A stretch of DNA of 62,383 nucleotides, the filler included, from Deltaproteobacteria bacterium (lineage in GTDB: Bacteria; JAUYMQ01), in assembly GCA_030698575.1 (NCBI GenBank). It is 10 parts of 10 records of this genome, joined end to end, with 100 filler letters (N's around TTAATTAATTAA, not from the genome) between each part and the next. Parts side by side here need not be neighbours in the genome. Positions count along the whole stretch, not along the records: positions 16,021 to 23,925 come from JAUYMQ010000084.1; 9 more parts are not named here. One strand, given 5' to 3'. The translations under genes and the position numbers were made by a program. The notes below the pieces were generated by a model. That model was not told where the DNA came from and did no database searches. It was given only the letters and a program-made list of their open reading frames with translations. This document shows, one piece after another, positions 3,041-51,889 of the stretch. The stretch's first letter is position 1. Each line of letters opens with the position of its first letter.

Positions 3041-3140
3041 NNNNNNNNNNNNNNNNNNNNNNNNNNNNNNNNNNNNNNNNNNNNTTAATTAATTAANNNN
3101 NNNNNNNNNNNNNNNNNNNNNNNNNNNNNNNNNNNNNNNN
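3041..3140. other. Artificial contig linker (N-run with six-frame stop TTAATTAATTAA)
   Basis: Identical 100-bp linkers also at 10236-10335, 15921-16020, 23926-24025, 30361-30460, 36787-36886, 39663-39762, 55021-55120 and 59068-59167. Confidence 0.99.
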
Positions 3141-6917: not shown

Positions 6918-6934
6918 ACAACTCACCCGGACAT

Positions 6935-6972
6935 AAAAGAGCCCCGGAGCGACGCTCCGGGGCTCTTGTTTT
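6935..6972. terminator. Bidirectional intrinsic terminator between convergent genes
   Basis: 14-bp perfect stem AAGAGCCCCGGAGC / GCTCCGGGGCTCTT with A-rich and T-rich flanks. Confidence 0.85.
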
Positions 6973-6991
6973 CAAGCACACGCAAGCGCTC

Positions 6992-7930: not shown

Positions 7931-8040
7931 GAGTCGCCGTTAGGTGTTTTGCCAGCCGCAATCCGGGATTTTCCCGGGGCGCTGACACCATCATCTCAGC
8001 CGGGGGCTAAAGCAGGCCTTAGTGCGGTATTAGAAATGCC

Positions 8041-9510
8041 TTAGCTTCCAGCGTTGTCGGGGCCCGGCGCAGGGTCGGGTGGTTCGTTCCCCACGCCGCC
8101 TTTTCGCGGGATGGGGAGGAATACGCGCATTCGCGTTCCGGAGGGGGGCTCCACGCTGGACCCGACCTCGATGCGGCCGCCGAGGTCCTTCACGATCTGC
8201 GCGCAGATTGCCAGGCCGAGGCCCGATCCCGCGAATTCGCTCCCGCGTGCCGTCGAGCCGCGGTAGAAGCGATCGAAGATGCGCGCGCGCTCCTCCTCCT
8301 CGATGCCGATTCCCGTGTCTCCCACTTCGACCCGCACCTCGTCGCCGGCCAGGGCGGCTGTCACCCATGCGCGCCCGCCGGAGCTGGTGTAGCGCACGGC
8401 GTTGTCGACAAGGTTGAGGAAAAGCTGTTTCAGCGCGTCTTCCGACGCCAGCACGACGAGTTCACCCGGCGCCTCCAGGTCGATCGTCACCTTGCGCCCG
8501 GCCGCCGCAATTCGCATCTGATCCACGACTTCGCCCAGCAGCGGCTGAAGCTTAACCTGCCGCCGCTCGGCGGAAACCTCTGCGTCGGCACGGGCAAGTG
8601 TCAGGAGCCCGGCGACGAGGCGGCTCAGACGGTCGACCTCTTCCTGCATGCTGGACATCACTTCGCGATACTCGCCGGGCGGGCGCTCCTTCTTCAGAGC
8701 GATCTCGAGCGATCCCTTCATGATCGAGAGCGGCGTGCGTAGCTCGTGCGACGCATCGGAGGTAAAGCGCATCTGGGCCCTGAAGGCTTCCTCCAGCCGC
8801 CCCAGCATCCGGTTCAGCACGCGAACGAGGTGCGCCAGCTCGTCGGCACCAGCCTCCTCCGGAAGGCGTTGCGACAGGTTACGCTCGCTGATCTCCTGGG
8901 CCGCGCGGGCGATCTCGTCCACGGGCCGCAGCGCCTTCTTCGTCAGGAAGTAGCCGCCCACGCCGATCAGCAGGAGAGCGCTCGCAGCGATCGTCGCGAT
9001 CAGGCGAAAGAGCTCCGCCAGCGACGACTCCAGCGTCTGGAGCGAGAGGCCCACCTGCAGAACCTGGCCCACGCCGACAGAGCTTTCGATCGGCAGGTAG
9101 AGAACCCGGACGCGACCGCCCGGGATCCGGCTCGTCTCGATGAGGACCTTCCCCTCCCGCGCGGCCGCCAGGCCCTCGGGGCTGATGGGGAGAGTGTCGA
9201 GGGAAAGGTTGGGCGGAGGCGAGAGGAGCTGCCCGTCGGGATCGATGAGCTGAACGGAACGTGCGGCGCGATCAGCCCGCCCGTCCCCGTAACCCGTCCC
9301 CGGCGTCATCGGGATGTAGCCGCCGGTGGGATTGAGAAGCGTGGCCGCCTCGGTCTCGGCGATGGCCCACAGTGAGCTGTCGATGTTCCTGAGGAGGTTC
9401 CTTGCCATGCCCGCGTAAAGCAGCACGCCGGCGGCGAGGAGAATGGCTCCCATCACCAGCATGTGCCAGAGCGTCAGTCTGGATCGGAAGGTGCGCAAGG
9501 TCGGCCGCAT
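8041..9510 (-). CDS. HAMP-domain sensor histidine kinase (CusS/heavy-metal-sensor-like)
   Basis: Two TM segments, HAMP, H-box DASHELRTPL, N-box NLVDNAVRY, DTGIGI, GSGLGL. Confidence 0.93.
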   Translation of the reverse strand: MRPTLRTFRSRLTLWHMLVMGAILLAAGVLLYAGMARNLLRNIDSSLWAIAETEAATLLNPTGGYIPMTPGTGYGDGRADRAARSVQLIDPDGQLLSPPPNLSLDTLPISPEGLAAAREGKVLIETSRIPGGRVRVLYLPIESSVGVGQVLQVGLSLQTLESSLAELFRLIATIAASALLLIGVGGYFLTKKALRPVDEIARAAQEISERNLSQRLPEEAGADELAHLVRVLNRMLGRLEEAFRAQMRFTSDASHELRTPLSIMKGSLEIALKKERPPGEYREVMSSMQEEVDRLSRLVAGLLTLARADAEVSAERRQVKLQPLLGEVVDQMRIAAAGRKVTIDLEAPGELVVLASEDALKQLFLNLVDNAVRYTSSGGRAWVTAALAGDEVRVEVGDTGIGIEEEERARIFDRFYRGSTARGSEFAGSGLGLAICAQIVKDLGGRIEVGSSVEPPSGTRMRVFLPIPRKGGVGNEPPDPAPGPDNAGS

Positions 9511-9957: not shown

Positions 9958-10335
9958 TGGTTCATCCTCGTCTCAAAGGGCCCCCACCCTTGCGGGACCC
10001 TTCGCGGCCCATCGTGCCGCGGGGGGAATCTCCGGCCGGGCAGTACGCGGCCAGGCCGGTTCGCCGGGCGCGTACTGCTTACCTCATCGGCGGCCTCCGC
10101 CGCGGGCTTGAGCGGCCCGAGCCGTGGCCCGTGGAGCGCCGCGGGGGCTGCTTGACAGCCCCACGTCCGCTTCTTCATGATGGGAATAGGTGACGGGGCA
10201 GGTTTTCGCCCCGCGACCGCCACTTCCCGCGCCCGNNNNNNNNNNNNNNNNNNNNNNNNNNNNNNNNNNNNNNNNNNNNTTAATTAATTAANNNNNNNNN
10301 NNNNNNNNNNNNNNNNNNNNNNNNNNNNNNNNNNN

Positions 10336-10642: not shown

Positions 10643-10944
10643 GTCCCTGCTCCAGCGGCGGCGTTCGGGGGGTGGTGCACAGCCCCCATGCTCCCCCCCC
10701 GGCCCATCTCCGTCAAGCCCCTCGCTGCCGCCCGGCGGGGGAAAATAGCGGGGTGCCGCACCTCTTCAAGGCTCTCCCTTTATTGACTTTCGCCCCGGCC
10801 CCGTGGGATAAAGAGGGCCGGGGAAGTGAGGGGCCTGGGAGACGCGTTCATGCGGACAGCTTCAGGTCCCCTGGGGGCATCGAGCGTCGGGGACGTATAT
10901 GCGTCGGCCGGCGTTTTTGGTTTCTTGAGAAATCGGAGCAGTCC

Positions 10945-12783
10945 ATGAGCGAGCCTCTCAGCCCCCCGCCGTCCATCGACGTCCGGAATTTTCTCCCCAC
11001 TACCGAACTCTTCCGCAACCTCGATCCCGTGGCCGTCGAGGAACTGGCCCGGGGTGTCGAGCGTGTCCACCTCGCGAGCGGGGAAACCCTCATTCATCAG
11101 GGCGAGAGGGGCGACTGCCTCTACGTCCTGGTGAATGGACGATTGAGGGTCGTGGTGGAGCACGCGGACGGATCGGAGACCACCGTGGGCGAGGTGGCCC
11201 GGGGGGAGGTCGTCGGGGAAATGGCGCTGCTCACCGACGAGCCGCGCTCGGCCACCGTCAGGGCCATTCGCGACAGCGAGCTGGTAATGTTCTCGAAGGA
11301 GATGTTCGAGCGCGCGCTCGAGCATCACCCGCAAGCCATGATGCAGATTGCCCGTCAGATCATCGTCCGCCTGCACCGGACCATCAGGGCCGGCGCGGTC
11401 GCCAACACCGTCAATACGCTCACGGTCATACCGGCCGGAACGGGCGGGCCCATCGTGCAGTTCACCCAGCGACTCGCGGAATCCCTCGAGCGATTCGGGA
11501 CGACGATCATACTCGATAGCGACAGGGTGGAAGAGCAACTGGGCAAGGGCGCGGCCGAAACACCGCAGTACGGCCCCGGCAACAACAAGGTGCTCTCCTG
11601 GCTCAATGAACAGGAGGCAAAATATGAGTTCGTGATCTTCCAGGCCGACGCCACCGCCTCGAACTGGACCCGCCGCTGCCTCAGGCAGGCGGATCGCGTT
11701 CTCGCCGTCGCGCAGCCGGGCGGGGAACCGGCGCTCAACCGCATCGAGGAGGAGATCGAGCGCCACGGGCGCAAGCAGGCATTCGCCCGCACCGACCTGG
11801 TGTTTCTCCACGACGCGTCCACTGAACGACCCGCGGGAACGGAACCCTGGGTCGCCAGGCGTCATGCAACCACCGTCCATCATCTTCGCCTCGATCAGAC
11901 CGCCGACTTCCAGAGGCTTGCGCGAATTCTCACGGGCCGGGCCGTCGGCATCGTGCTCGGAGGAGGCGGGGCGCGCGGTCTCTCCCACGTGGGTGTGCTG
12001 AAAGCCATTCTGGAACTCGGGATACCCATCGACGTGATCGGCGGCACCAGCATGGGCGCCATCATCGCCGGCCTTTACGCCATGGACCGCGACATTGAGC
12101 GCGCCTACGAGACCTGCAGGGAGGGTTTCGTGAAGGAAGGCTCGTTGCTCGATTTCACGTTTCCGGCCGTGGCGCTGACCTCGGGAACCAGGATCACAAC
12201 CAAGCTCAAGCGTTTCTTCGGCGACACGCGCATCGAGGATTTGTGGCTGAACTACTATTGTGTCTCGAGCAACCTGACGCGAGCCGAGGTGGCGGTGCAC
12301 CGGAGCGGACCGGCCTGGAAGCGTATCCGTGCAAGCATCTCGCTGCCCGGAGTCATGCCCCCGGTATTCGATGAGGGCAACCTGCTGGTGGACGGCGGCG
12401 TCATGAACAACCTGCCCGTCGATGTCATGCGCAATCTCTGCGACGGGGGAACAGTGATTGCCCTGGATGTCAGCCCCAAGATCGATCTGACCCAGAAAGA
12501 GTCCTTCGGAGAGGGGCTCAGCGGCTGGAGGATCCTGCGCAAGCGCGTCAATCCGTTTGCGCAAACGCTCGATGTCCCGACCATCGCGAGCGTTCTCATG
12601 CGGACCACGTTGCTCGGGAGCGCGAGCTCACAGAACATGATGGCCCGGCAGGCGGATATCTGCCTCTGCCCGCCCGTCGAAAAGTTCGGCCTGCTCGAAT
12701 TCAAGTCATTCGACGAGATCGCCCAGATCGGCTACGAATTCGCAATGAAGGAACTCGAAGGCTGGTACAAAGCCAGATGCTGA
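10945..12783 (+). CDS. cNMP-binding domain + patatin-like phospholipase (NTE/RssA type)
   Basis: cNMP motif GEMALL..PRSATV; patatin GGGGARG, GTSMG, DGG. Start assigned to ATG 10945. Confidence 0.92.
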   Translation: MSEPLSPPPSIDVRNFLPTTELFRNLDPVAVEELARGVERVHLASGETLIHQGERGDCLYVLVNGRLRVVVEHADGSETTVGEVARGEVVGEMALLTDEPRSATVRAIRDSELVMFSKEMFERALEHHPQAMMQIARQIIVRLHRTIRAGAVANTVNTLTVIPAGTGGPIVQFTQRLAESLERFGTTIILDSDRVEEQLGKGAAETPQYGPGNNKVLSWLNEQEAKYEFVIFQADATASNWTRRCLRQADRVLAVAQPGGEPALNRIEEEIERHGRKQAFARTDLVFLHDASTERPAGTEPWVARRHATTVHHLRLDQTADFQRLARILTGRAVGIVLGGGGARGLSHVGVLKAILELGIPIDVIGGTSMGAIIAGLYAMDRDIERAYETCREGFVKEGSLLDFTFPAVALTSGTRITTKLKRFFGDTRIEDLWLNYYCVSSNLTRAEVAVHRSGPAWKRIRASISLPGVMPPVFDEGNLLVDGGVMNNLPVDVMRNLCDGGTVIALDVSPKIDLTQKESFGEGLSGWRILRKRVNPFAQTLDVPTIASVLMRTTLLGSASSQNMMARQADICLCPPVEKFGLLEFKSFDEIAQIGYEFAMKELEGWYKARC

Positions 12784-14168
12784 GTTCAGTCCGGAAATTT
12801 CTCGAACGAATCGTCCGCTTTTTCTATCCCGTCATCGCGGTCTCGGGCGCGCATCGCATCCCCTCCGCGGGCTCGGTGGTCGTCGTGTCGAATCATCCGA
12901 ACGGGCTCATCGACCCCGTGACCATCGGTCTGGGCCTCGCCCGCCCCGTCGCCTTCCTCGCCAAGGGCACGCTTTTCGGCAATCCGGTCTCCCGCCTCCT
13001 GATGGACGCCTTCGGCGCGATTCCCGTTTACCGCGCCGTCGACGGCCAGGGAACCGGACGCAACCAGGAAACTTTCGCCATTTGCCGCAAGCGCCTCCTC
13101 GAAGGAGGATGGATCGCGATCTTTCCGGAGGGAACCACGCACGATGATCCGGCGATGAAGCCCTTCAAGACCGGCGCCGCACGCATCGCGCTGGAGGCGC
13201 AGGCGGACGCCGGCGACGATCAGTCTGTGAAGATCCTTCCGGTCGGACTTCTCTACGAGGACAAGCACATCTTCCGATCGCGCCTGGCCCTGAGCGTGGG
13301 CGAGCCGATCGACGTGCGCGAGCAGGCGAGGGAAGCTCCGGCTGATCCGAAGGCGGCGGCGGAGCATTTCACGGCTGTCATCCACGAGGCGCTTGGCGCC
13401 GTCACCCTGGAGGCCGAGAACCGCGAGCTGTGGCGCGGCTTCATGGCGGTGGCCGCCTGGACGGACCGGGACGCCGACGAGGACCTCGCGCTGCGCGAGA
13501 CACGCGCCCGCAGCCTGGCGCGGGCCTACCGGCAGCTCGTGACCGCCGATCCCTTGAGAGCCGGGGAAGTCGTGGATATCACCCGGCGCTTCGTGCGGAT
13601 GCTCCAGTCAGTGGGAATCGACGATCCGCTACATCTGGAAGGATCGGATCGGCCGACACTCGCGGCGCTCGCGGGCTCTCTCTTTTCCCTCCTCATGATG
13701 GCGCCGGTTGCGCTGGTCGGCGCGGTCCTGAGCTGGATCCCCTACCGGCTCGTGAAGCCGCTGGCCCATCTGGCAGCCGGCGGCAAGGTGGAGCTGATCG
13801 GCACTTTCAAGGTCCTCATCGGGCTGGTCATCATGACGATCACCTACGTAACAGAGGCTGTTCTCTTTGGAAGTTGGTTCGGCTGGCCCGTGGGGCTTGC
13901 AACCCTCGTCATCGCGCCCGCCACGGGTTTCATCGCCCTGCGGTTTCACGAGCGCCTGTCGCTGCGAAGAGAGGCGCTCCGGGCCTACTGGCTGCGATCG
14001 ACGCGCGCGCGCGTCGCGGTGGAGATCCGGAAGCGCCGCCGGGAACTGGCGCGGCTGGTGGAAGTTGCGCTGAAGGAAGTTCTGCCGGAATCCGCCGGGT
14101 CTAGTGTCGAACCTGGCGCTAACGCGCAGACGGAGCCGGGCGGGAACGTCGGCGCCCCCATCCGATAA
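12777..14168 (+). CDS. Glycerolipid acyltransferase (PlsC domain) with C-terminal TM segments
   Basis: NHPNGLID (HxxxxD), FPEG, KTGAAR; overlaps the patatin stop. Confidence 0.88.
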   Translation: MLSSVRKFLERIVRFFYPVIAVSGAHRIPSAGSVVVVSNHPNGLIDPVTIGLGLARPVAFLAKGTLFGNPVSRLLMDAFGAIPVYRAVDGQGTGRNQETFAICRKRLLEGGWIAIFPEGTTHDDPAMKPFKTGAARIALEAQADAGDDQSVKILPVGLLYEDKHIFRSRLALSVGEPIDVREQAREAPADPKAAAEHFTAVIHEALGAVTLEAENRELWRGFMAVAAWTDRDADEDLALRETRARSLARAYRQLVTADPLRAGEVVDITRRFVRMLQSVGIDDPLHLEGSDRPTLAALAGSLFSLLMMAPVALVGAVLSWIPYRLVKPLAHLAAGGKVELIGTFKVLIGLVIMTITYVTEAVLFGSWFGWPVGLATLVIAPATGFIALRFHERLSLRREALRAYWLRSTRARVAVEIRKRRRELARLVEVALKEVLPESAGSSVEPGANAQTEPGGNVGAPIR

Positions 14169-15920: not shown

Positions 15921-16020
15921 NNNNNNNNNNNNNNNNNNNNNNNNNNNNNNNNNNNNNNNNNNNNTTAATTAATTAANNNNNNNNNNNNNNNNNNNNNNNN
16001 NNNNNNNNNNNNNNNNNNNN

Positions 16021-16440: not shown

Positions 16441-17475
16441 ATGGGCAGCCCGGGCAGGAAGGAAATTCGCTACTGGAACATTCTCCAGCCGTTGCCGGCG
16501 CCCATCCTGATCGAGCTGGCGAAGCAGGCCGAGGCTCAGGGGATCCACGGAAGCTTCGCGCCCCAGGTCTATGGCCCGCCCTTCCTTCCCCTGGCGGTGG
16601 CAGCCGGGGTCACCGACAGACTGCAGCTTGCGAGCGGCATCGCGATCGCCTCGGCCCGCAGCCCCTTCGAGACCGCGATGGCGGCCATCGACATGGATCG
16701 CATCTCGATGGGGCGCTTCACGCTCGGCATTGGCGCCAGCGTGCTCGCCTGGTCGCGCGGCGTGTTCGGCGCGCCCGAGCACAAGCCCCTCGCGCACCTG
16801 CGCGAGACCGTGGCCGCCGTGCGGCACATCGTAAGCGGCGCGGGAGGGCATCTCGAGCCCTTCGAGGGCACCTACTACAAGGCCGACTTCACCCACTACC
16901 AGCCGCTGGAACCGCCGCTGCGAACCGAGATTCCCATCTGGGTGGCCGCGCTGCGCGCGCCCATGGTGCGCCTTGCCGCCGAGATCGGCGACGGCGTGAT
17001 CGGGCATCCGATGTGGTCGGCCGACTGGGCCGTGAATCACATGCAGCCCGAGCTGGAGGCGGCGCTGGCGAAGGCGGGCCGGAAGCGAGAGGACATCGAG
17101 GTGAACCTCTGGCCCTGGGCTGCGCCCAACCCGGACGAGGCGGAGGCCATCGAGGACTCACGCGCCACGATGGCTTTCTACGGAGGCGTGAAGCAGTACG
17201 AGTCGTTCTTCGAGGCGCACGGCTTCCTCGACGTGGCGCGAAAACTCCAGGAAGGCGTGCAGCGCGGCGACTACCGGAGCGTGGCCCACCTCGTGCCCGA
17301 CGAGATGGTGCGCGCCTTCGTCGCCGTGGGCGAGCCCGAGAAGGTGAAGGAGCAGGTGGGCCGCTACGCGTCCGTGGCCGACAGTCTTTGCATTGTCCCG
17401 CCGGTCTACGCGCTTCCGCCCGAGAAGGTCTTCCAGTACGTGAACGCCATCGCAGCGACGTTCTACGGCGGATAG
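16441..17475 (+). CDS. LLM-class (luciferase-like, possibly F420-dependent) oxidoreductase
   Basis: LASGIAIASARSP, SMGRFTLGIG, IWVAALRAPMVRLAAEIGDG. Confidence 0.85.
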   Translation: MGSPGRKEIRYWNILQPLPAPILIELAKQAEAQGIHGSFAPQVYGPPFLPLAVAAGVTDRLQLASGIAIASARSPFETAMAAIDMDRISMGRFTLGIGASVLAWSRGVFGAPEHKPLAHLRETVAAVRHIVSGAGGHLEPFEGTYYKADFTHYQPLEPPLRTEIPIWVAALRAPMVRLAAEIGDGVIGHPMWSADWAVNHMQPELEAALAKAGRKREDIEVNLWPWAAPNPDEAEAIEDSRATMAFYGGVKQYESFFEAHGFLDVARKLQEGVQRGDYRSVAHLVPDEMVRAFVAVGEPEKVKEQVGRYASVADSLCIVPPVYALPPEKVFQYVNAIAATFYGG

Positions 17476-17484
17476 CCGGCGTTA

Positions 17485-18507
17485 TCAGCTCTCCATATCC
17501 CGCCCGCCGTCCCCCTTCGGTTCCAGCCGGGTGCGGCCGGTGGCCAGGATGATCTCCGGATCGACGCCCGACCGTCGGGCGATTTCCTCCGAATGGCGGA
17601 GTTCCTCCTCGCTCATCAGCCTGGTTCCCTCGAAATCCCAGGTCATCCCCAGCCTCGCGTACTTGTCCGCCGCAAGATTGTTGAAGGCGCAAAGCTCCCA
17701 GCGCGTGACCACGTCGCCCAGGTGCCGGGCGATGAAGGCGCCGAGGCCGGCCAGGTTCTCGTCGCTGAAGGTGGCGCCGGGTATCAGCGGCGTGCGAATC
17801 CATAGCCGGCCGGGAAGCCCGCCTTCCCGTATTCCCCGGGAGAGCGAGATGAGATTGGAAAGGATCCTCTCATTGGAAACCCCCGTATGCCGGGCGTGCC
17901 TCCCGGAATCGATGTCCTTCAGATCGTAGAGGATCAGGTCGGCGTGCCGGGCCACCGAGTCGAGGGACCGGGCCGAGCACATGCCGGAGGTATCGATGGC
18001 CGTGTGGATGCGGAGCGAACGGCAGCGTTCCAGGAAAGGCGCGACGAACCGGGCGCGAAGCGCGGGCTCACCGCCCGAAACGGTCACGCCCCCTTCAGAG
18101 GTCTCGAAGTAGCTCCGGTCCTTCAGGACCTCGCCGACGAGTTCGCGAAGCCCCCAGCGCCTCCCGAGGATTTCCAGGGCGGTCGAGGGGCATTGATCGG
18201 CGCACTCTCCGCAGGCCGTGCAGCGCGCGTGGTCGATCTCGATCTTGTCTTCAATTCGGCGGAGGGCGTCCTCGGGGCAGACCGCATCGCACAGGCGCGT
18301 GTTGAGGCACTTCCACGGGTGCCACACGAGTTGCGGCTTCGACACCAGCGCTTCGGGGTTGTGGCACCACCGGCAGGCAAGGCTGCAGCCCTTCAGGAAG
18401 ACGGTCGTACGCAGGCCCGGGCCGTCCTCGGTGGACATGCGTTGAATGTTGAGGACCGTCGCGTAGGGTCCGGCCCCGGCCCCGTCCTTCTCACGCCCGG
18501 GCTGCAC
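17485..18507 (-). CDS. Glycyl-radical enzyme activating enzyme (radical SAM with ferredoxin-like insert)
   Basis: DGPGLRTTVFLKGCSLACRWCHNPE; insert CLNTRLCDAVCP...CTACGECADQCP; GVTVSGGEP. Confidence 0.95.
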   Translation of the reverse strand: MQPGREKDGAGAGPYATVLNIQRMSTEDGPGLRTTVFLKGCSLACRWCHNPEALVSKPQLVWHPWKCLNTRLCDAVCPEDALRRIEDKIEIDHARCTACGECADQCPSTALEILGRRWGLRELVGEVLKDRSYFETSEGGVTVSGGEPALRARFVAPFLERCRSLRIHTAIDTSGMCSARSLDSVARHADLILYDLKDIDSGRHARHTGVSNERILSNLISLSRGIREGGLPGRLWIRTPLIPGATFSDENLAGLGAFIARHLGDVVTRWELCAFNNLAADKYARLGMTWDFEGTRLMSEEELRHSEEIARRSGVDPEIILATGRTRLEPKGDGGRDMES

Positions 18508-18561
18508 CGTGATCCTCCGCTATAGCCGGCAGCGGCTCTCCCGCGCGAACGGCAGGGGAGG

Positions 18562-19737
18562 TCACCGCTCGGACGACGGGGCTTTCTGATTGAACCGCCT
18601 GCCGAACAGGATGCTGGCCATCGTGATGCGGAGCATCTGGACCGTGCCGCCGGCCACTCTCCAGGCCAGTGCGTCGCGGTGCATCCTCTCCAGGGGGAAT
18701 TCCTTGCTGTAGCCGTAGCCGCCCAGGATCTGCATGGCCCCGTCGGTGACCTCGGCGGCCATCTCGTTTGCGAAGCACTTCCCCATCGAAGATTCGTACA
18801 TCGAGGGGAAGCCCTGCCCGGCGCCGGTGGCGGCGCGGTAGACGAGGAGGCGCGCCGCGTCCAGCTTCATGGCCATGTCGACGATCCGGAACTGGACATC
18901 CTGGAATTCGCAGATGGGCCGGCCGAACGCCTGGCGCTCAAGGGTGTAGGCCCTGGCCTCCTCCAGCGCCCCGCCCGCGATTCCGAGGCACATTGCGGCG
19001 TTGCCGCAGCGCTCGAGATCGAAGGTCGTCATCAGCTCGGCGAACCGCCCCGCTCCCAGGACCACGCTTTCCCCGGGAATCCCCACGTCCTTGAAGATCA
19101 GATCGCAGGAGGGCATGCCCCGGAGGCCCATGAATTCTTCCTGCCTTCCGAACGTGAATCCGGGCGCATCCTTCTGCAAGAGGACGGCGCCGATGCCCTT
19201 GTAACCGGGCACGTCGCCGAAGCGGCAGTAGACCATGTAGTGGCTGGCCTCCCCGCCGCCCGAAATGAACGTCTTGCGCCCGTTGAGGCGGAACCCGTCG
19301 CCGTCCTCCGTCAGCTTCGTTCTGAGCGACACCAGATCCGATCCCGCCTCCGGCTCGGTCATGCCGACCGAGACGCTGGCCTCACCCCTGCAGACCGCGG
19401 GCAGGACGGCGCGCTTCTGCGCGTCGGTGCCGAAGGCGTCGATCACCCTGACCGGACCCAGGTTCGATTCGAAGACCGGCGCGGCGATCATGGGGCTGAA
19501 CTTCGCCAGTTCCTCGATGGCCAGGACGGCGGTGACGCCAGGTTGCCCGCCGCCCCCGTATTCGGGAGACAGCGTCATGCCCAGGAGCCCCAGGTCGGCG
19601 AACTTCTTCATCAGGTGCAGGGGGAACTCGCCGGTCTTCTCGGTCCGGGCCGCCAGCTCCCTGAACTTCTCGCGCTGGCCCATGGTGCGGATCGTCTCCA
19701 CCAGGGCCCGTTCTTCCTCGTTCAGCGCGAAGTCCAT
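18562..19737 (-). CDS. Acyl-CoA dehydrogenase
   Basis: MTEPEAGSD, LNGRKTFIS, RQAFGRPI, QILGGYGY. Confidence 0.93.
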   Translation of the reverse strand: MDFALNEEERALVETIRTMGQREKFRELAARTEKTGEFPLHLMKKFADLGLLGMTLSPEYGGGGQPGVTAVLAIEELAKFSPMIAAPVFESNLGPVRVIDAFGTDAQKRAVLPAVCRGEASVSVGMTEPEAGSDLVSLRTKLTEDGDGFRLNGRKTFISGGGEASHYMVYCRFGDVPGYKGIGAVLLQKDAPGFTFGRQEEFMGLRGMPSCDLIFKDVGIPGESVVLGAGRFAELMTTFDLERCGNAAMCLGIAGGALEEARAYTLERQAFGRPICEFQDVQFRIVDMAMKLDAARLLVYRAATGAGQGFPSMYESSMGKCFANEMAAEVTDGAMQILGGYGYSKEFPLERMHRDALAWRVAGGTVQMLRITMASILFGRRFNQKAPSSER

Positions 19738-19764
19738 TCGGTTCTCCCGGCCGTCAGGAAAGGA

Positions 19765-22146
19765 TCAGCACTCGAACTCGGTGCGGCTGATGATCTCGTT
19801 CTGCGCGATCTCGCTCAGGCCCGTGAACAGCGCCGAGTAGCCGCTGACGCGCACCACCAGATCGCGGTGCTTCTCCGGGTGCGCCTGCGCTTCGCGGAGA
19901 ACGGCGGAGTCGATCATGTTGAATTGCACCTGCACGCCGCCCTTCTTGAAGTAGGTTTTCAACAGGGCCCCTAGTGTTTCCGGGCGCAGCCGGACGGGGT
20001 TGAAGCGCATGTTGAGGTTCACCCCGTTGTGGGCCCTCAGGAGCGGCAGCTTCGTGACCGAGTTCATGATCGCCGTGGGGCCGGTCGTTGCGCTGCCGTT
20101 CGAGGGGGTGATGCCGTTGCCCAGCACGTCGCCGGCGAAGCGCCCGTCCGGGCTCGCGCCCGCGAAGGCCCCCATGGCGATGTGGAAGCCGACGGAGAAC
20201 ACCCCGGGCCAGAAGGTGCCGCCCCGGTAATTCCGGTGCTCGAGCACCCGATCGCAAAAATGATCGAGCACTCTGGCCGCCATGGAATCCGCGCCGTCGT
20301 CGTCGTTGCCGTACTTCGGGATCCGGTTCAGGAAGTAGGCCCGCCGGTCCCCGGCATCGTCCCAGTCATCCAGCAGCATCTCCGACAGCTCCTTCATCGT
20401 GACGACGCCCTCCTCGAAGACCGCCTCTTTCACCGCATACAGGCTGTCCACGACGTTGGAGAAGCCGATGAGCTGCACGCCGGTGGAGTTATAGACCGCT
20501 CCACCTCGCGTCAGATCCATTCCCTTCTCGAACGGCCCGTCGATCATCGCGGATGCGAAGGGGGAAGGAACCCGATCGGCGATAGCCTTGTCGAGGACGG
20601 CCATCCCCCGGGCCATCTGCCCCATGAAGTGCCTCACCTGCGCGTCGTAGGCGTTCCAGACGTCTTCGAAGGAGGAGAACGAACCCGGGTCGCCGGTGCT
20701 GAGACCCGATTGACTGCCGAAAATGCTGTCCATTCCATCGCTCAGGGCGAACTCGAGGCACTTCATTCCGCTGAACTGGACCGCGAACGTCGAGCCGAAA
20801 CTCTTCCCCTGGGCATTGGGCTCCAAACACCCCACGACCCCGTAATCGCGCGCATCCTCGAGTGTGTGGCCGGCGCGCTGAAGCGATTCGACGATCACCT
20901 CGTCATTGAAAAGGTGGAGCGGCACGCCCGCCTTCGCGTACCGTACCGCCCTCAGGAAAAAATCGTCCGGCGTGCCGGGCCCCACGCGCACGCCGAAGTT
21001 GGGCTGAACGGTGCTCAGGGCGGCGAAAGCGTCGAGGCCGATATAACTCAGCTCGTTGGTGACGTCCTCGCCATCGGGTCCCATGCCGCCGACGGTGACG
21101 TTCTGCGTGGTCTTCCCTTCCACCCCTTCTCCCCCGGGGATGAACGCATCCTCGAGAATATTCCAGATCTCGTTCGTCTTCAGGAAGAGCATCGAGAGAA
21201 GCTCGCGGGCCCTGTCCGGCGTGATTGCGCCCGCTTGCCTGTCCGCCTCGTAGTAGGGGAAAAGGTGCTGATCGATGCGCCCCAGCGAGACCGAGTTGCC
21301 GCCCGATTCAATCTGGGCGACCAGGTGGATGAAGTAGACGCACTGAACCGCCTCATGGAAGGTCCGCGCCGGATGCGCGGGGACCCGCCGGCACGTTTCG
21401 GCGATCGCGCGCAGTTCCTCCGCGCGCGCCGGATCGGGCTCCTCGCCGGCCATACGTTCGGCGACATCGGCATGGCGGTTGGCAAAGCGGATCGCCGCCC
21501 TGCAGGAGCGCGCGGCGGCATCGTAGAAGCGGCCCTTCTCTCCCTCCCGATCCTTCGCCGAAAGCGCCGCGTACCGCTGTTCCGCGTCGCTCGCGATTCC
21601 TTCGAGCCCCGTCTTCAGGATTCGGGAATGATCCATCGTGAAATGGCCGATGCCGTAGGTGATCTCCAGGACCATCGTGAAGACGTACTTGTCGATGTCT
21701 CGGGCGACGTCCTCCGGAAGAGCTTCCTCCAGATGGTCCTCGACGGTTCTGCCTCGCCAGAAGGGAAGGATGTCTTCCCGCAGCTCGCGTTGCTGCTCGG
21801 CCGTGATCTTCACATTCTGGAGTTCGCGCTGCCCGAAGCCTTCCATGTCCTTTTCGATCCACCGGCACTTGTTCTCGGGGAAGAACGGCGCGCCTTTGAG
21901 CCTGGAAGTGCGGCACCCCACGATGAGCTCGTCGTCCCGGATGATCACGCTGATCTTCTCGATGACGTGCTCGAGGGCCAGGCTCATTCGCGTGAGCGGA
22001 TGCCTATCCCAGTTCTCCGCCATGGACTGCGTGAAATAGCGCGCCCGCTCGACGCAGGCCTCTCTGGGCGCCTCGATGATGCGGCTCCTCAGGCGCTCCA
22101 CGCGGTCCAACGAGGCGGATCTTACGATCGGTTGCACGGCCGACAT
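19765..22146 (-). CDS. Glycyl radical enzyme (PFL2/eliminase-like), substrate unknown
   Basis: Cys loop VVGCLEP and Gly loop LVVRVSGYSA; 793 aa; no PFL-type CC motif. Confidence 0.93.
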   Translation of the reverse strand: MSAVQPIVRSASLDRVERLRSRIIEAPREACVERARYFTQSMAENWDRHPLTRMSLALEHVIEKISVIIRDDELIVGCRTSRLKGAPFFPENKCRWIEKDMEGFGQRELQNVKITAEQQRELREDILPFWRGRTVEDHLEEALPEDVARDIDKYVFTMVLEITYGIGHFTMDHSRILKTGLEGIASDAEQRYAALSAKDREGEKGRFYDAAARSCRAAIRFANRHADVAERMAGEEPDPARAEELRAIAETCRRVPAHPARTFHEAVQCVYFIHLVAQIESGGNSVSLGRIDQHLFPYYEADRQAGAITPDRARELLSMLFLKTNEIWNILEDAFIPGGEGVEGKTTQNVTVGGMGPDGEDVTNELSYIGLDAFAALSTVQPNFGVRVGPGTPDDFFLRAVRYAKAGVPLHLFNDEVIVESLQRAGHTLEDARDYGVVGCLEPNAQGKSFGSTFAVQFSGMKCLEFALSDGMDSIFGSQSGLSTGDPGSFSSFEDVWNAYDAQVRHFMGQMARGMAVLDKAIADRVPSPFASAMIDGPFEKGMDLTRGGAVYNSTGVQLIGFSNVVDSLYAVKEAVFEEGVVTMKELSEMLLDDWDDAGDRRAYFLNRIPKYGNDDDGADSMAARVLDHFCDRVLEHRNYRGGTFWPGVFSVGFHIAMGAFAGASPDGRFAGDVLGNGITPSNGSATTGPTAIMNSVTKLPLLRAHNGVNLNMRFNPVRLRPETLGALLKTYFKKGGVQVQFNMIDSAVLREAQAHPEKHRDLVVRVSGYSALFTGLSEIAQNEIISRTEFEC

Positions 22147-22231
22147 GGCTGCTTCTCCTGCCGAAGGTTTGATGGTCTCTTGATCTTCCCGGAACCCGCT
22201 TCCGGTTTCGCGCGCCAGGTCCCGGCGCGAA

Positions 22232-23059
22232 CTACACCCGGATGTCCATCTGCCCCAGGAGAATCCGGTCCCTGAGCGCCCTGGGCAGAAATCGATTCAG
22301 CTTGAGGAAGAACCGGCTCTTGAAGTCGATCTGGTTGCAGACAGCCGGGCGTTCGGACTCGATGATCCCGGCGATGACCGCCGCGGCCTGGCGCGGGGTG
22401 GGAGCGGTCCTGATCAGCTCCTTGTCACGCTGGATAAAGCGCCTCACACGCTCCCGGTAGGGTGATCCCTCGGGCGGAAGCACGTGGATCTTGGCGGCGA
22501 AATCTGTCGATACCTGCGCGGGCTGAACCAGCGACACCCTGATCCCGAACGGCTCCACCTCGTAGCGCATCGACAGGGCCAGTCCCTCGACGGCGAATTT
22601 GCTGGCGGAGTAGATCGATTCGAAAGGGAAGGGTATCTCTCCGACCAGCGACGAGACGGCGACCAGCTTCCCACTGCGCCTTTCACGCATCGCGGGAACG
22701 AACGCCTGGAAGATGGCGGCGGTGCCGATCACGTTGATCTCCATGCACCGCAGCGCGCCTTCCAGATCGATCTCCTCAAAGGGGCCGAAGAAGCCGATGC
22801 CGACGTTCGAGAGCACCGCGTCGACATGGCCGAACTTGCCAAGCACCTGATCCCTGAACCGGAGGATGCCCGGGCGGTCGCGGATATCCAGCACCTCCAG
22901 CAGCGATTCCGCGCGCATCTCGTCGAGCTCGGATTTCAGCGATCCGACGGCGCCCGCATCGATGTCGAAACCCGCTACGACGTTTCCGGATGCGGCCAGC
23001 AGCTTAGCCACTTCGCGTCCGATCCCCTGCGCCAGTCCCGTGATTACGACCACCTGCAT
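22232..23059 (-). CDS. Short-chain dehydrogenase/reductase (17beta-HSD-like subgroup)
   Basis: TGLAQGIG, catalytic YSASK, RYEVEPFGIRVSLVQP. Confidence 0.92.
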   Translation of the reverse strand: MQVVVITGLAQGIGREVAKLLAASGNVVAGFDIDAGAVGSLKSELDEMRAESLLEVLDIRDRPGILRFRDQVLGKFGHVDAVLSNVGIGFFGPFEEIDLEGALRCMEINVIGTAAIFQAFVPAMRERRSGKLVAVSSLVGEIPFPFESIYSASKFAVEGLALSMRYEVEPFGIRVSLVQPAQVSTDFAAKIHVLPPEGSPYRERVRRFIQRDKELIRTAPTPRQAAAVIAGIIESERPAVCNQIDFKSRFFLKLNRFLPRALRDRILLGQMDIRV

Positions 23060-23098
23060 GCTTCAAGCCCCTCGTCGATTGTCCATTCCGGTGACGCC

Positions 23099-23539
23099 TC
23101 ACTTCCTGGTGAGGATCAAGTGCTCCAGGTTCATATCGCCCAGGACCACCGGAAACGTCTTGAAGGCGGATCTCACCACCGGCAGGAGCTTCAGCATCGC
23201 GACGATGTTTCCGCCCTGCTTGACCTTGCCCGTCGCCACGGACGTGATCGGATTTTCGTGACCATGCCAGAATCGGTGGGAGTGATCGGCCGACTGCCTG
23301 GACCAGACGTCGGGCTTCAGATCGCACTCACCGAGGTAGAAGGCGCCGTGATAGCCGGGCTTGGAAGGGGGATTCTTGAGATCGATGGTGATCTCGGAAT
23401 CGGGGTCCGTGTAGATGAACTTGATGATGAGATTGGCCCGGGACATCTTGGGGCCAATCTTGTCGTCCTGCAAAATACGGCTCAGGAAAGCATCGTAAAT
23501 GCGGTAAAGCTGGTCCGCGTCCCGGTAGTACTCGCCCAT
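23099..23539 (-). CDS. SCP2 (sterol-carrier-protein-2)-like lipid-binding protein
   Basis: 146 aa with the pattern PDV...SAD..HRFWHG.ENP..SVATGKVKQGGNI..MLKL. Start at ATG 23539. Confidence 0.7.
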   Translation of the reverse strand: MGEYYRDADQLYRIYDAFLSRILQDDKIGPKMSRANLIIKFIYTDPDSEITIDLKNPPSKPGYHGAFYLGECDLKPDVWSRQSADHSHRFWHGHENPITSVATGKVKQGGNIVAMLKLLPVVRSAFKTFPVVLGDMNLEHLILTRK

Positions 23540-23750
23540 TTTGAATCCGTTCTGCCGAACAAACCGCGTATGAACATCATTGACGATCTCCGCCATGCGT
23601 GCCACCCGAAAATCGCGATGTTGGGAGAGGGAGCCGTGCATGCCGAGCGGCGCGGACTTGCCGTGGAACTTTACCCGACTGGATGACTCTGGTTTTATGA
23701 CCCGGCTCGGGCCGTGATCCCTCTCGAAGCGCGTCCGTCATCGCGCAGGT

Positions 23751-23925
23751 CTAGGGGCGGTCCTGATCGGCGTCACCCTTGGTGACGAACCAGTTTGCGC
23801 CGTCGGTGAAGAAGGCGGGATCGAGATCGGGGCGGTTCGGGCGGACGAAGAAGGTCATGGGCGAGTCGCGGACCACGAAGCCGAATTTCCGGAGATGCTC
23901 TTCCGCCGTGGGATTCAGCACCACG
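23751..23925 (-). CDS. C-terminal fragment, possibly GNAT-family protein
   Basis: My translation VVLNPTAEEHLRKFGF...NWFVTKGDADQDRP*; codon usage is gene-like. Confidence 0.45.
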
Positions 23926-24025
23926 NNNNNNNNNNNNNNNNNNNNNNNNNNNNNNNNNNNNNNNNNNNNTTAATTAATTAANNNNNNNNNNNNNNNNNNN
24001 NNNNNNNNNNNNNNNNNNNNNNNNN

Positions 24026-32280: not shown

Positions 32281-35154
32281 TCAGATCTTCTCGACTTCCA
32301 CGCGTGTGCCGCGGTCGTTCTGTCCCGGCTGCATCGCGATGATCATCGGCTGGAGGTGGAAGTAGCCGCCCGCGAGCTGGATCGGGTTGATCGGGCTCGG
32401 GATGATCGCCTGATCCGAGCGCCGATTGCTGAACTGCTGCGGCTCCCAGGCGTGGTAGACGACCACCTGACCAGGCCTCACGGCCGGGAATATTTTCGCC
32501 TCGACTTCGAAGTCGCCGAGATCGTTCCGCACCCGCACCCGGTCGCCATCGGAGATTCCCCGGGTCCTGGCATCCTCGACGCTCATGCACACAACGGGCC
32601 CGCCCCGCTGCAACCTCAGCATCAACGGGTCGTCGCGCCAGCTCGAGTGAATCGACCAGCGCGTGTGTCCGCCGGTCATCTGGAGCGGATGGTCGCCGCC
32701 GATCGCGGGATTGTCCTTGTGGGTGGGGAGCTGCTCGCCCAGTTCCATGTAGAGATCCTGGTCGATGTAGAACTGCATCCGTCGCGTGAGAGTCGGCCAG
32801 GGAATCTTCTTCTCGGTGTGCCAGGTGTTCGCCGTGATGGTCTCGTCCGGCTTCACGTCCGTGGCGGTCCCGATGTTGACGGCCGACTGCCCGACTGCGG
32901 TGAAGCGTGCGTATCCCTTCTCCTTCAGCTCCTTCCAGGAGGTCCCCTCCAGGTTCTTCGACAGCTTGACCAGCTCGTCGAGCGTCTTCTCGACGTCGCC
33001 TTCCGTGTAGCGCCCGCCGTAGGTGAACTGCTCGTACACTTTATCCAGCCTTCTTTCCTTCCCGCCCCGATCGCGGAAGGTCTTAATTCCCTTCTCCACT
33101 GCCCTTTGCTGGATCTTCTTGGTGAGCAAGCAATAGAACACCCATTCGTTTTTAGATTCGCCGAGCGGATCGATCGCCTTCGTGGTCACATGGGCATAGG
33201 GCATGATCGGCGTGGCCCAGGTGACATCGTCCTTTTCATACCAAGCTGCGCTGGGCAGAACATAGTCGCTGTACATCGCCGTCGCGCTCATGCGCCAGTC
33301 GACCGTCACGAAGAGATCAAGCTTCGGAAGCATCGTCTTGATGATTTCGGGATAGGAACGAACCCGCCTCAGGATGTTTCCGCCAGCTTCGAAAAAGATC
33401 TTCGGTTCTTGCTTGGGCGCGAACTGCCACCCCTTCGCCACCGCCTCGTCCACGTATTCGCTCACGTCGCGCTTGAGGTAAGGATCCCATTCCCGGCTCC
33501 GGCCGCTCACGCCGCGAAGTCCTCCGAAGAAGTAATAGAAGAGGACGGAATTCACGAAGGGACCTTCTTCGAAAATTTTCCGGGTATTTTCGTAGGTCAC
33601 CATCTCGTCGGAGTAGCCCTGAAGCTTCATCTTGGCGACTCCCGGCGCGAACCCGGCCATGACCGCGAGCGAGCCGAGAGCCAGAGGGAGCGACGCGGGC
33701 GCGAGGCTGGCGATCTCCGGGGCGTCGATGCTCATCCACGGGAAGGCGTTGTACCCGCTCCCCTTCTTCCCGTACTGGCCGCAGAGCGCGAGCACGAGGA
33801 TCTGCACCCGCTCCATCTCCAGCCCGTGGTAGAACTTCGAAAAATTGGACTGCGTGATGATCGTGGCGGCCCGCGCCTTCGCGATGTCGTGGGCGAGGCG
33901 CCGGATGACGGCGGCCGGCGTGCCGGTGATCTTCGCCGCGGCCTCGGGCGCGTAGCCGGCGACCTTCTCCCGCAGCAGTGTGAGAACAGGCGTTACGAGA
34001 ACCTTCCCTGAAACCGTTTCCGCCTCGTACTCTCCCGCCAGCGCCGGATCGCGCCCCTCGAGCTTGAGGCTCCGCTTCGGCGCCTCCGCGATCTTTTTTT
34101 CCACGAGATCATGGAAGTAGAAAACGTCGTCCTTCCCCCCCCGCTTCATGTCGCTCTCGCGGAGAAACAGGCCGTTGTCGCGGCGCACGAGAAGCGACAG
34201 ATCGGTTTGCTCCTTGATGAAGGCGTCGTTCTGGAGGTTCTCCTCGAGGATGACGTGAGCAATCGAAAGTCCGAGGGCGGCGTCCGTGCCCACGTTGACC
34301 GGCACCCACAGGTCCGCGTGCACGGCGGAGGGATTGTAGTCGGGCGTGATGGTCACAACGCGAGCGCCGTTGTATCGCGCCTCGTTGAAGAAGTGCGCGT
34401 TGGGAATCTGCGTCGAGACGGGGTTGCCGCCCCAGATGAGGATCAGATCGGAATAGAAGCAGTCGTCGCCCGAGCTGGCGAAGACGATCTTGCCGCAGGT
34501 GGCCGCGGCGCCCGGATGGTGATCGCCGATCTCGGCGTTCATATCGAGGATCGGCGTATCGAGAACGTTTCCCGCGCGCAGCACGCCGAGCGCGGCACAG
34601 CCGTTGGTAAGCCCCTCGCCGAGATCCCAGTAAATTCCGCCCGACCCCTCGGCGGTCATCACCGCGATCATCCGATCGGCGATGTCCGTCAGCGCCTCGT
34701 CCCACGTGACGCGCGTCCACTTGCCGCCGCCCCTGGGCCCCATGCGCTTGAGCGGATAGAGAACGCGCGTGGGGTCGTACATCCGGTGACTGAAGCAGGC
34801 GCCCTTCTGGCAGCCGCGGGGGTTGAAGTCGGGGACGTCGGCGTTGGTTTGCGGATAGTCGGCCGCCTGTTCCTCGCGCAGGACAAGCCCTTCCTTCACG
34901 AAGATGTTCCAGCTGCAGGCGCGCTGGTACCAGCAATTAACGTGGTGGGTTCCCTTTGCGACGCTGTCCCAGGTCCAGGCCTTGCGGTAGATATCCTGGA
35001 ACCCCTCGTAGCGAGGGTGGGGTGGAAGCGCGGCCCCCTCTCCGAGTGAGGTCGCACCAGCGGAGAAGGGGATGCGGAGCTGGCTCAGGCAGAGCGCGAG
35101 GGTGCCGGCGCCGGCGCCCTGAAGGAACTGCCGACGCGTCATTCCGAAGGCCAT
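32281..35154 (-). CDS. Molybdopterin oxidoreductase alpha subunit, type II (EBDH/S25DH-like)
   Basis: Tat signal TRRQFLQ; FS0 motif GTHHVNCWYQRAC...NPRGCQKG; IGD Asp-ligand motif; HTRWSIHS; terminal RGTRVEV. Confidence 0.92.
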   Translation of the reverse strand: MAFGMTRRQFLQGAGAGTLALCLSQLRIPFSAGATSLGEGAALPPHPRYEGFQDIYRKAWTWDSVAKGTHHVNCWYQRACSWNIFVKEGLVLREEQAADYPQTNADVPDFNPRGCQKGACFSHRMYDPTRVLYPLKRMGPRGGGKWTRVTWDEALTDIADRMIAVMTAEGSGGIYWDLGEGLTNGCAALGVLRAGNVLDTPILDMNAEIGDHHPGAAATCGKIVFASSGDDCFYSDLILIWGGNPVSTQIPNAHFFNEARYNGARVVTITPDYNPSAVHADLWVPVNVGTDAALGLSIAHVILEENLQNDAFIKEQTDLSLLVRRDNGLFLRESDMKRGGKDDVFYFHDLVEKKIAEAPKRSLKLEGRDPALAGEYEAETVSGKVLVTPVLTLLREKVAGYAPEAAAKITGTPAAVIRRLAHDIAKARAATIITQSNFSKFYHGLEMERVQILVLALCGQYGKKGSGYNAFPWMSIDAPEIASLAPASLPLALGSLAVMAGFAPGVAKMKLQGYSDEMVTYENTRKIFEEGPFVNSVLFYYFFGGLRGVSGRSREWDPYLKRDVSEYVDEAVAKGWQFAPKQEPKIFFEAGGNILRRVRSYPEIIKTMLPKLDLFVTVDWRMSATAMYSDYVLPSAAWYEKDDVTWATPIMPYAHVTTKAIDPLGESKNEWVFYCLLTKKIQQRAVEKGIKTFRDRGGKERRLDKVYEQFTYGGRYTEGDVEKTLDELVKLSKNLEGTSWKELKEKGYARFTAVGQSAVNIGTATDVKPDETITANTWHTEKKIPWPTLTRRMQFYIDQDLYMELGEQLPTHKDNPAIGGDHPLQMTGGHTRWSIHSSWRDDPLMLRLQRGGPVVCMSVEDARTRGISDGDRVRVRNDLGDFEVEAKIFPAVRPGQVVVYHAWEPQQFSNRRSDQAIIPSPINPIQLAGGYFHLQPMIIAMQPGQNDRGTRVEVEKI

Positions 35155-51877: not shown

Positions 51878-51889
51878 GCGAGGAGATCG

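Follow-up and report, generated by a model that had tools for sequence, protein, structure and literature searches.

A conserved glycyl radical enzyme operon encoding an SCP2-fold protein: a candidate eliminase system for hydrophobic or branched hydroxylated substrates

The closest described systems to the locus reported here are the glycyl radical enzymes (GREs) of the eliminase and isomerase groups. In the parts of a June 2026 GRE review that were available to us, the characterised C-O eliminases are glycerol dehydratase (GD), propanediol dehydratase (PD), HpfG, HypD, HpyG and HpzG, the C-N eliminase is CutC, the C-S eliminases are IslA, IseG and HpsG, and the isomerases are HplG, YbiW and PflD; every one of these eliminases and isomerases keeps the motif CxE within its Cys loop. 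The same parts of the review record small GRE subunits only for 4-hydroxyphenylacetate decarboxylase (HPAD), benzylsuccinate synthase (BSS) and (1-methylalkyl)succinate synthase (MASS), and report that the beta subunits of MASS and BSS are thought to gate the entry of hydrophobic substrates, and that in GD the residue E435 removes the proton of the C1 hydroxyl while His164 supplies one to the hydroxyl that leaves. The characterised eliminases act on small polar substrates and come mostly from gut bacteria, and entire clades are without experimental validation, as far as the accessible literature records. We describe here a five-gene operon that combines a GRE with a protein of the SCP2 fold, found in a 62,383-nucleotide stretch of DNA (the window) from a Deltaproteobacteria bacterium (GCA_030698575.1), which probably marks an undescribed oxygen-free breakdown route for a greasy or branched hydroxylated compound.

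The window consists of ten short contigs placed end to end, with two 44-N runs around a TTAATTAATTAA stop-linker at each join (3041-3140, 10236-10335, 15921-16020, 23926-24025 and five further places), and because the contigs are artificially concatenated, gene order across these points is meaningless. The operon lies whole on one 7.9-kb contig (16021-23925), where five co-oriented minus-strand genes encode, 5' to 3', the SCP2-fold protein (146 aa, 23099-23539), a classical short-chain dehydrogenase/reductase (SDR; 275 aa, 22232-23059; adh_short, 153 bits), the GRE (793 aa, 19765-22146; PFL-like PF02901 at 643.7 bits and Gly_radical PF01228 at 91.4 bits), an acyl-CoA dehydrogenase (ACAD; 391 aa, 18562-19737; the three ACAD domains PF02771, PF02770 and PF00441) and a radical SAM GRE activase (340 aa, 17485-18507; Radical_SAM and Fer4 domains, and TIGR02494 at 292 bits against a cut-off of 174.35). 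The intergenic gaps are 39, 85, 27 and 54 bp. All but one of the five start codons have a Shine-Dalgarno-like motif ahead of them; the activase begins with GTG and has GGAGG 7 nt ahead of it. The five closely spaced genes that a sequence-only reading of this DNA had proposed are all recovered as open reading frames (ORFs), including the SCP2 start at 23539, an ATG that agrees with the starts of homologues (an ORF finder's 180-aa version begins at 23641). The operon is real and intact, and constitutes a self-contained glycyl-radical system. We see an even chance that it represents a new family of GRE 1,2-eliminases whose hydroxylated substrate is hydrophobic or branched and which feeds acyl-CoA oxidation.

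The catalytic core of the GRE is well conserved, and its pocket departs from those of its nearest solved relatives. Placement of the family used NCBIfam cut-offs and pairwise alignments to structures in the Protein Data Bank (PDB). The protein passes TIGR01774, a broad subfamily model (691.9 against a cut-off of 678.2), and misses all of the NCBIfam equivalog cut-offs (HpfG 545.8/1000, HypD 534/1100, PflD 514.3/1109, HpsG 476.9/1000 and CutC 458.5/1050). The best solved relatives are GD (1r8w, 548 bits) and the PDs 9rco (514 bits; the Raoultella GRM3 enzyme, PMC12756279) and 5i2a (501 bits), followed by the PflD and YbiW structures (442-449 bits), and scores against the other classes are far lower (MASS 264, BSS 256, HPAD 176 and pyruvate formate-lyase (PFL) 123 bits). 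An alignment of the window protein with 97 distinct full-length relatives (98 sequences) places the Cys loop G-C440-L-E442-P over C433 and E435 of GD, with both the Cys and the Glu in 98/98. H168, the equivalent of GD His164, is likewise in 98/98, S285 is kept as the equivalent of Ser282, and the radical glycine G769 within R-V-S-G-Y occurs in 97/98, the remaining sequence having a gap. The resulting signature (H168, N284, S285, T347, C440, E442, S452, T453, F454, F650, V652 and G769) is invariant across the alignment apart from that gap. On these alignments the GRE fits the PFL-like superfamily and, within it, the eliminase/isomerase group with C-x-E.

Differences appear at the further pocket positions, which line the substrate in GD and PD. 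The residue at GD position 281 is His in GD and in both PDs and is N284 here; position 339 is Tyr in GD and Phe in both PDs and is T347 here; positions 445-447 are W-H-D in all three solved enzymes and S452-T453-F454 here; position 640 is Tyr in all three and F650 here; and position 642 is Ser in GD, Val in both PDs and V652 here. Four of these five positions (with N284, T347, F454 and F650) thus differ from GD and PD alike, and V652 is the PD residue. The placement outside the characterised families that was read from the sequence alone therefore stands, with no equivalog cut-off passed and with the diol dehydratases nearest but different in the pocket; no characterised family was found to match with the same active site. 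The family most likely performs a 1,2-elimination, either a dehydration or an ether cleavage, that would feed acyl-CoA oxidation.

The ACAD has an unusual arrangement of its putative catalytic base. It reads V-A-G-G-T, with Gly363, where relatives have Y-E-G-T, and the canonical J-K-loop Glu (Glu376 of medium-chain acyl-CoA dehydrogenase, MCAD) is missing; Glu242, within D-L-E-R-C, lies 121 residues upstream of the missing residue. Both the Gly replacement and the upstream Glu are present in 75/75 of the ACADs encoded in related clusters (layouts A and B, described below). The accessible part of PMC10925408 states that every known ACAD has kept the J-K-loop base save LCAD (long-chain acyl-CoA dehydrogenase) and IVD (isovaleryl-CoA dehydrogenase), in which the base comes from helix G, and that LCAD takes branched and sterol-like substrates. 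The position of Glu242 fits that of the LCAD/IVD helix-G base. The SDR contains the TGxxxGIG and YxxxK motifs, and its best solved relatives are structures of 17beta-HSD1, at about 105 bits. In the activase a CxxxCxxC motif is accompanied by two ferredoxin-like Cys motifs.

The 146-aa protein does not reach the Pfam PF02036 gathering score (15.1 against 21.3 bits, E 0.031), and its assignment comes from structure prediction. An AlphaFold2 model from an alignment of 34 sequences has a pLDDT of 85.9, and a Foldseek search with it gave 41 PDB matches with E <= 0.001, the best at E 1.4e-7, with target TM 0.77-0.79 and identity of 21-22%. The top matches are the SCP-2L domain of human peroxisomal multifunctional enzyme 2 (MFE-2), further sterol carrier proteins, alkylsulfatase SCP2 domains and UbiJ-SCP2, and 20-40% of the members of its ESM Atlas neighbours carry PF02036. 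The SCP2 alpha/beta fold is thus confirmed at the level of the predicted model. Mean column identity in this family is 73%, against 79% for the GRE, and such strong conservation is unusual among SCP2 carriers. It is most evident in an invariant polar block, A-D-x-S-H-x-F-W-H-G-x-E-N-P (D85, S87, H88, W91, H92 and N96), which resembles a metal-binding or catalytic site, or an interface with another protein, more than the lining of a lipid tunnel. We also note that the segment comprising residues 82-97, Q-x-A-D-x-S-H-x-F-W-H-G-x-x-N-P, contains two His and one Asp, and that the family has one nearly invariant Cys.

The co-folding of GRE and SCP2-fold protein that had been suggested as a check gave scores of 0.44, 0.41 and 0.52 (median 0.44) when run with custom alignments, against 0.00 for three controls, with at least 77% of contacts in agreement between runs and a partner pLDDT of 84. 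The mark applied is reached by 58 of 80 solved complexes as against 2 of 110 mismatched pairs, and those reaching it with values of 0.60 or below comprise only 7 of the 80 solved complexes together with both passing mismatches. The result lends weak support to an interaction, the predicted complex raising slightly the odds that the two proteins bind each other.

The family to which the GRE belongs is widespread. A protein search returned, among the matches listed, 120 clusters of 68-100% identity to the GRE that carry generic names only, and the family as a whole shows 63-86% identity among uncultured anaerobes. Gene neighbourhoods were compared in 58 loci from species-representative genomes (60-75% identity) and 78 more from metagenomes (none above 76%), these 136 loci spanning at least eight phyla and including Dehalococcoidia and other Chloroflexota, Desulfobacterota, Syntrophales, Binatia, Actinomycetota, Leptospirales, Spirochaetales and Chitinophagales. 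The metagenomes and metagenome-assembled genomes that supplied relatives include fen, peat (SPRUCE) and marine sources. Counts were made at >= 35% identity and >= 60% coverage and are lower bounds on non-independent rows, some metagenome loci duplicating genome loci and many contigs being cut. With that scope, the GRE was scored in 125/136 loci and the SDR in 101/136, almost always directly upstream of the GRE, with an ACAD in 78/136 and an SCP2-like protein in 70/136. The SCP2/SDR/ACAD neighbourhood is thus conserved, as the sequence-only reading had anticipated. The usual operon also has members beyond those then recognised, namely the alpha and beta subunits of a GctAB-like CoA-transferase (86/136 and 75/136), an extended SDR of the 'epimerase' family (80/136), a PrpD-like protein (71/136) and PadR (47/136), with LivJ-type proteins in some loci. 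Aldehyde dehydrogenase (ALDH; 13/136), an AMP-ligase (7/136), the activase (7/136) and aldehyde oxidoreductase (AOR; 6/136, of the tungsten type) are less frequent, and no further ORF of >= 100 aa is widely common to the 136 loci.

These genes occur in three layouts. In layout A, the majority type, the order is [SCP2][PadR]-extended SDR-SDR-GRE-CoA-transferase alpha-CoA-transferase beta-PrpD-ACAD[-SCP2]. Layout B is extended SDR-SDR-GRE-SCP2-(AOR or ALDH)-AMP ligase-ACAD (L042, L051, L097 and L142), and layout C is extended SDR-SDR-SCP2-GRE with a divergent ACAD upstream. One layout-C cluster has a group II intron reverse transcriptase/maturase directly upstream of it (L013:4638-6230, minus strand). 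The genes common to all layouts, SDR, GRE, SCP2 and ACAD, are the set present in the window. The window's own order, SCP2-SDR-GRE-ACAD-activase, is found in 0/136 of these loci, whose identities do not exceed 76%; the closest relatives (P0002-P0006, 78-86% identity to the GRE) fall outside the 136-locus set. The window ACAD is 70-78% identical to that of layout A, the commonest operon type, and by sequence the window genes are of type A despite their compact layout. The best matches of the extended SDR, all sub-threshold, are HpnA, thioester reductase, SdmB and OleD, and that of the layout-B ligase, also below cut-off, is a long-chain fatty-acid CoA ligase subfamily.

In this GRE family it is exceptional for the cluster to include an activase. 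Three complete Chloroflexota-type genomes of relatives each encode three GREs and one activase, to which the window activase shows 47-50% identity. In two of these genomes the lone activase has a different, more divergent GRE as its neighbour, and in the third it is about 15 kb from the GRE of the present family; one activase may therefore serve three GREs in those genomes. The two adjoining pairs are at G001:C1:2412526-2416241 and G003:C1:1868645-1871740 (loci L061 and L063), and the divergent GRE there matches the PFL-like model only from positions ~121-157 up to 641-645. The compact operon of the window, with its own activase, is a practical start for heterologous reconstitution.

From these features we infer a reaction type and an order of steps. 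The activase would install a glycyl radical at G769, and the thiyl radical formed at C440 would abstract a hydrogen from the hydroxyl-bearing carbon of the substrate. E442 would then deprotonate that hydroxyl, with H168 as the general acid aiding departure of the neighbouring C-O leaving group; a vicinal diol would lose water and a beta-hydroxy ether an alkoxide, and the elimination product would be an aldehyde or ketone. The SDR would interconvert the carbonyl and alcohol forms of the product, which would be oxidised to an acid, a step for which relatives encode ALDH or AOR and for which the window contig has no gene, and the acid would be converted to its CoA ester, presumably by the CoA-transferase or AMP-ligase that relatives encode. 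The ACAD, with a base arranged as in LCAD and IVD, the two ACADs of branched and bulky acyl chains, would dehydrogenate this ester, and the SCP2-fold protein would serve as a dedicated partner, binding a substrate or product of low solubility and passing it on. The sequence aldehyde (or alcohol to aldehyde), acid, CoA ester and alpha,beta-dehydrogenation is suggested by the gene content of layout B and of two other loci, one with an Fe-alcohol dehydrogenase and ALDH directly ahead of the GRE (L022) and one with ALDH after SCP2 (L027).

The sequence-only reading had also listed genes missing from the operon, and on the 7.9-kb contig that list holds, with none of small GRE subunits, shell genes, ALDH, pyrroline-5-carboxylate reductase or a sulfonate transporter present. 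These absences carry little weight because the contig is only 7.9 kb long and is cut near the SCP2 gene, ending 385 bp upstream of it. For ALDH the claim does not extend beyond the contig, as relatives carry ALDH or AOR in their clusters, which strengthens the diol-aldehyde-acid-acyl-CoA logic.

The nature of the substrate is where the evidence divides. The SCP2 fold, the apolar changes in the GRE pocket and the LCAD/IVD-type ACAD favour a hydrophobic or branched substrate, and in this respect the pathway first proposed from the sequence gains ground; the lipid reading in particular is weakened, and a smaller or carboxylated substrate indicated, by the CoA-transferase, PrpD-like and LivJ-type neighbours. 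Weaker pointers to a hydrophobic or branched substrate, every one under its family cut-off, are the HpnA, thioester reductase, SdmB and OleD matches of the extended SDR, the long-chain fatty-acid match of the ligase and the 17beta-HSD1 structures nearest to the SDR. Several points weigh against this reading or limit it. The CoA-transferase is nearest to glutaconate CoA-transferase GctA (192 bits), and its beta subunit keeps the Glu of a Q-E-S-G motif in 80/80 sequences, at the place of GctB's catalytic Glu54. Iminodisuccinate epimerase and cis-aconitate decarboxylase are the nearest matches of the PrpD-like protein, and in 14 loci, all of the L004 layout, the cluster has four periplasmic binding proteins of the LivJ type on its flanks. 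In L004 itself, a Chloroflexota chromosome, the four paralogous Peripla_BP_6 proteins lie at 5279-8043 and 16833-19924, and no permease or ATPase genes were seen among the conserved neighbours. None of the CoA-transferase, PrpD, extended SDR or an aldehyde-oxidising gene is on the operon contig, and the first three were also not found on the window's other contigs. Overall the ACAD is nearest to bacterial short-/medium-chain ACADs (265 bits to 3pfd against 186-212 to IVD), and the correspondence of E242 to Glu254 of IVD and Thr255 of MCAD was reached by spacing and by alignment to other ACADs rather than by direct alignment to IVD. The polar block of the SCP2-fold protein is something that a passive carrier would not need.

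These observations would be accommodated if the same eliminase chemistry acted on a small soluble substrate such as a diol of C3-C6 or a carboxylate bearing one or two hydroxyls, for example by a glycerol-like route via 3-substituted propionyl-CoA, with the SCP2-fold protein as a structural or regulatory subunit of the GRE instead of a lipid carrier. The retained catalytic Glu of the GctAB-like CoA-transferase, the small polycarboxylates on which known PrpD-family relatives act and the LivJ-type proteins of the 14 loci all point this way, as do the best NCBIfam matches of the ACAD, 3-sulfinopropanoyl-CoA desulfinase and acryloyl-CoA reductase (both below cut-off), and the conservation and polar Asp/His/Trp block of the SCP2-like protein suit a subunit better than a passive carrier. 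However, the polar pocket residues of GD and PD are replaced by smaller or apolar ones, the ACAD base is arranged as in enzymes of branched or bulky substrates, the CoA-transferase and PrpD are dispensable, both being lacking in the window and in the AOR/ligase variant, and the known GRE small subunits, as far as the accessible sources describe them, all resemble HiPIP or rubredoxin, an SCP2 fold occurring in none of them. We regard a small substrate as a serious rival, though on balance unlikely; the small-acid version is less favoured because of the SCP2 fold, the AOR/ligase variant and the arrangement of the ACAD base. A different proposal is that the GRE is an isomerase of the YbiW/PflD/HplG type that opens a hydroxylated ring or cyclic ether with no net elimination, the SDRs and ACAD processing the product. 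It has the same CxE motif, and isomerases cleave C-O (ether) or C-N bonds beside a hydroxyl-bearing carbon, according to the portions of the literature at hand; the PflD and YbiW structures at 442-449 bits are not far under the dehydratases, and two SDRs precede the GRE in most loci. Nonetheless the NCBIfam PflD model is at 514 bits against a cut-off of 1109, no conserved aldolase, kinase or sugar-phosphate gene is nearby in the 136 loci, and the variant with ALDH or AOR and a ligase suits an aldehyde product better, which makes an isomerase improbable. It is more improbable still, to the point that we would give it very little credence, that the GRE is a decarboxylase, an X-succinate synthase or a keto-acid formate-lyase. 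The superfamily fold and the activase are common to all GRE classes, and the combination of CoA-transferase, ACAD and SDR resembles the downstream genes of the benzylsuccinate pathway, but the GRE scores 264 bits against MASS, 256 against BSS, 176 against HPAD and 123 against PFL as compared with 548 against GD, its loop has a lone Cys with Glu at +2, and a small Fe-S subunit gene would not fit into gaps of 27-85 bp, the single small upstream ORF (54 aa) being without Cys.

We therefore take a hydrophobic or branched substrate as the likelier case than a small soluble one, placing about half of our confidence in it. The specific classes named from the sequence (a long-chain diol, an ether lipid or a steroid side chain) would be candidates within it. 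A branched, amphipathic substrate of medium size would bring the two sets of clues into agreement, as also would a lipid whose released chain has beta-methyl branches needing glutaconate- or HMG-like (3-hydroxy-3-methylglutaryl) chemistry. A more specific proposal, which we think quite unlikely, is that the GRE is an anaerobic glycerol-ether lyase: where GD expels the C2 hydroxyl, it would expel an alkoxide from an alkylglycerol, or from an isoprenoid (archaeol-type) glycerol ether, presented by the SCP2 partner. Oxidation of the freed alcohol would fall to the SDR together with ALDH or AOR; after activation to the CoA ester, an ACAD built in the manner of IVD and LCAD for 3-methyl-branched or bulky chains would dehydrogenate it, and the GctAB-like and PrpD-like proteins would process the beta-methyl branch via glutaconate- or HMG-like intermediates. 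If true, such a lyase would be the first enzymatic route for oxygen-free breakdown of ether lipids in sediments.

The operon has few neighbours on its contig. Upstream, the 3' end of a co-oriented ORF (57 aa, 23751-23924, minus strand) is cut by the contig end, its frame remaining open into the N-linker; this fragment has no Pfam family and no match in the 58 related genome loci. On the other side a gene of the luciferase-like (flavin or F420-dependent) monooxygenase family (16441-17475, plus strand) converges on the activase with a 9-bp gap, and a counterpart is absent from the 58 genome-derived and 80 metagenome-derived loci searched. An estuary metatranscriptome library, the one library concerned, matches 7% of the words sampled, with contigs of 151-245 nt that fall on the activase, ACAD and GRE and have 1-4 letter differences in those cited, one of them crossing the ACAD-activase junction (18491-18649). 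These matches are neither evidence of transcription nor independent support, because DNA carry-over or a common origin with the window is possible, and stretches lacking cover are uninformative.

Elsewhere in the window, a 703-aa protein with cyclic-nucleotide-binding, NTE-type P-loop and patatin phospholipase regions is followed by a PlsC-type acyltransferase (10672-14168); these lipid-remodelling genes are on a different contig and no link between them and the operon can be claimed. Other contigs encode a 720-aa large serine recombinase with several helix-turn-helix domains and a weak YdaS-like C-terminal match (56848-59010, minus strand), a sign of a mobile element there, a 657-aa CusF and SCO1/SenC fusion protein (51571-53544, plus strand) and a 957-aa molybdopterin oxidoreductase (32281-35154, minus strand).

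A full-text search, with supplements and subscription journals outside its scope, found no paper on a GRE with SCP2, PrpD, CoA-transferase or ACAD neighbours. Among the candidates considered, a limonene paper concerns a fumarate-adding enzyme and not a GRE of the window type, and the accessible portion of an Hxd3 review makes no mention of such a GRE. Within the sources available to us, this GRE family is widespread and uncharacterised, and a partner of the SCP2-fold type has never been reported for a GRE. Identification of the substrate would extend the known radical C-O cleavages by a new reaction, and could explain the anaerobic turnover of abundant, recalcitrant hydroxylated, branched or ether-linked compounds.

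The comparison with known systems places the window GRE beside the GD of C. butyricum (1r8w/1r9d) and the PDs (5i2a and 9rco), its best solved relatives and of the same length class, with which it has the C-x-E motif, the His164 and Ser282 equivalents and the radical Gly in common, and the mechanism, abstraction of the carbinol hydrogen followed by beta C-O cleavage, is probably the same. It differs from them in having N for H281, T for Y339/F344, S-T-F for W-H-D(447) and F for Y640, and in its context, the partners being an SCP2-fold protein, SDRs and an ACAD rather than a microcompartment or 1,3-propanediol dehydrogenase. YbiW and PflD, which open the ring of 1,5-anhydrohexitol-6-phosphate, also have CxE and, in the accounts accessible to us, provide a precedent for ether C-O cleavage by a GRE beside a hydroxyl-bearing carbon, although the window GRE is far under the PflD equivalog cut-off and is without a sugar-phosphate context. 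As in HPAD, BSS and MASS, a small protein is encoded beside the GRE and conserved with it; those accessory proteins carry Fe-S or Fe and are of the HiPIP or rubredoxin kind, as far as the available sources describe them, whereas the partner here has an SCP2 fold. The ACAD has the helix-G Glu and the Gly at the J-K-loop position in common with LCAD and IVD, although it is an orthologue of neither. The SCP-2L domain of MFE-2 (1ikt) has the same fold as the window protein, which differs in standing alone, in its sub-threshold Pfam score and in its invariant polar block. In MFE-2 the SCP-2L domain accompanies an SDR-type hydroxyacyl-CoA dehydrogenase.

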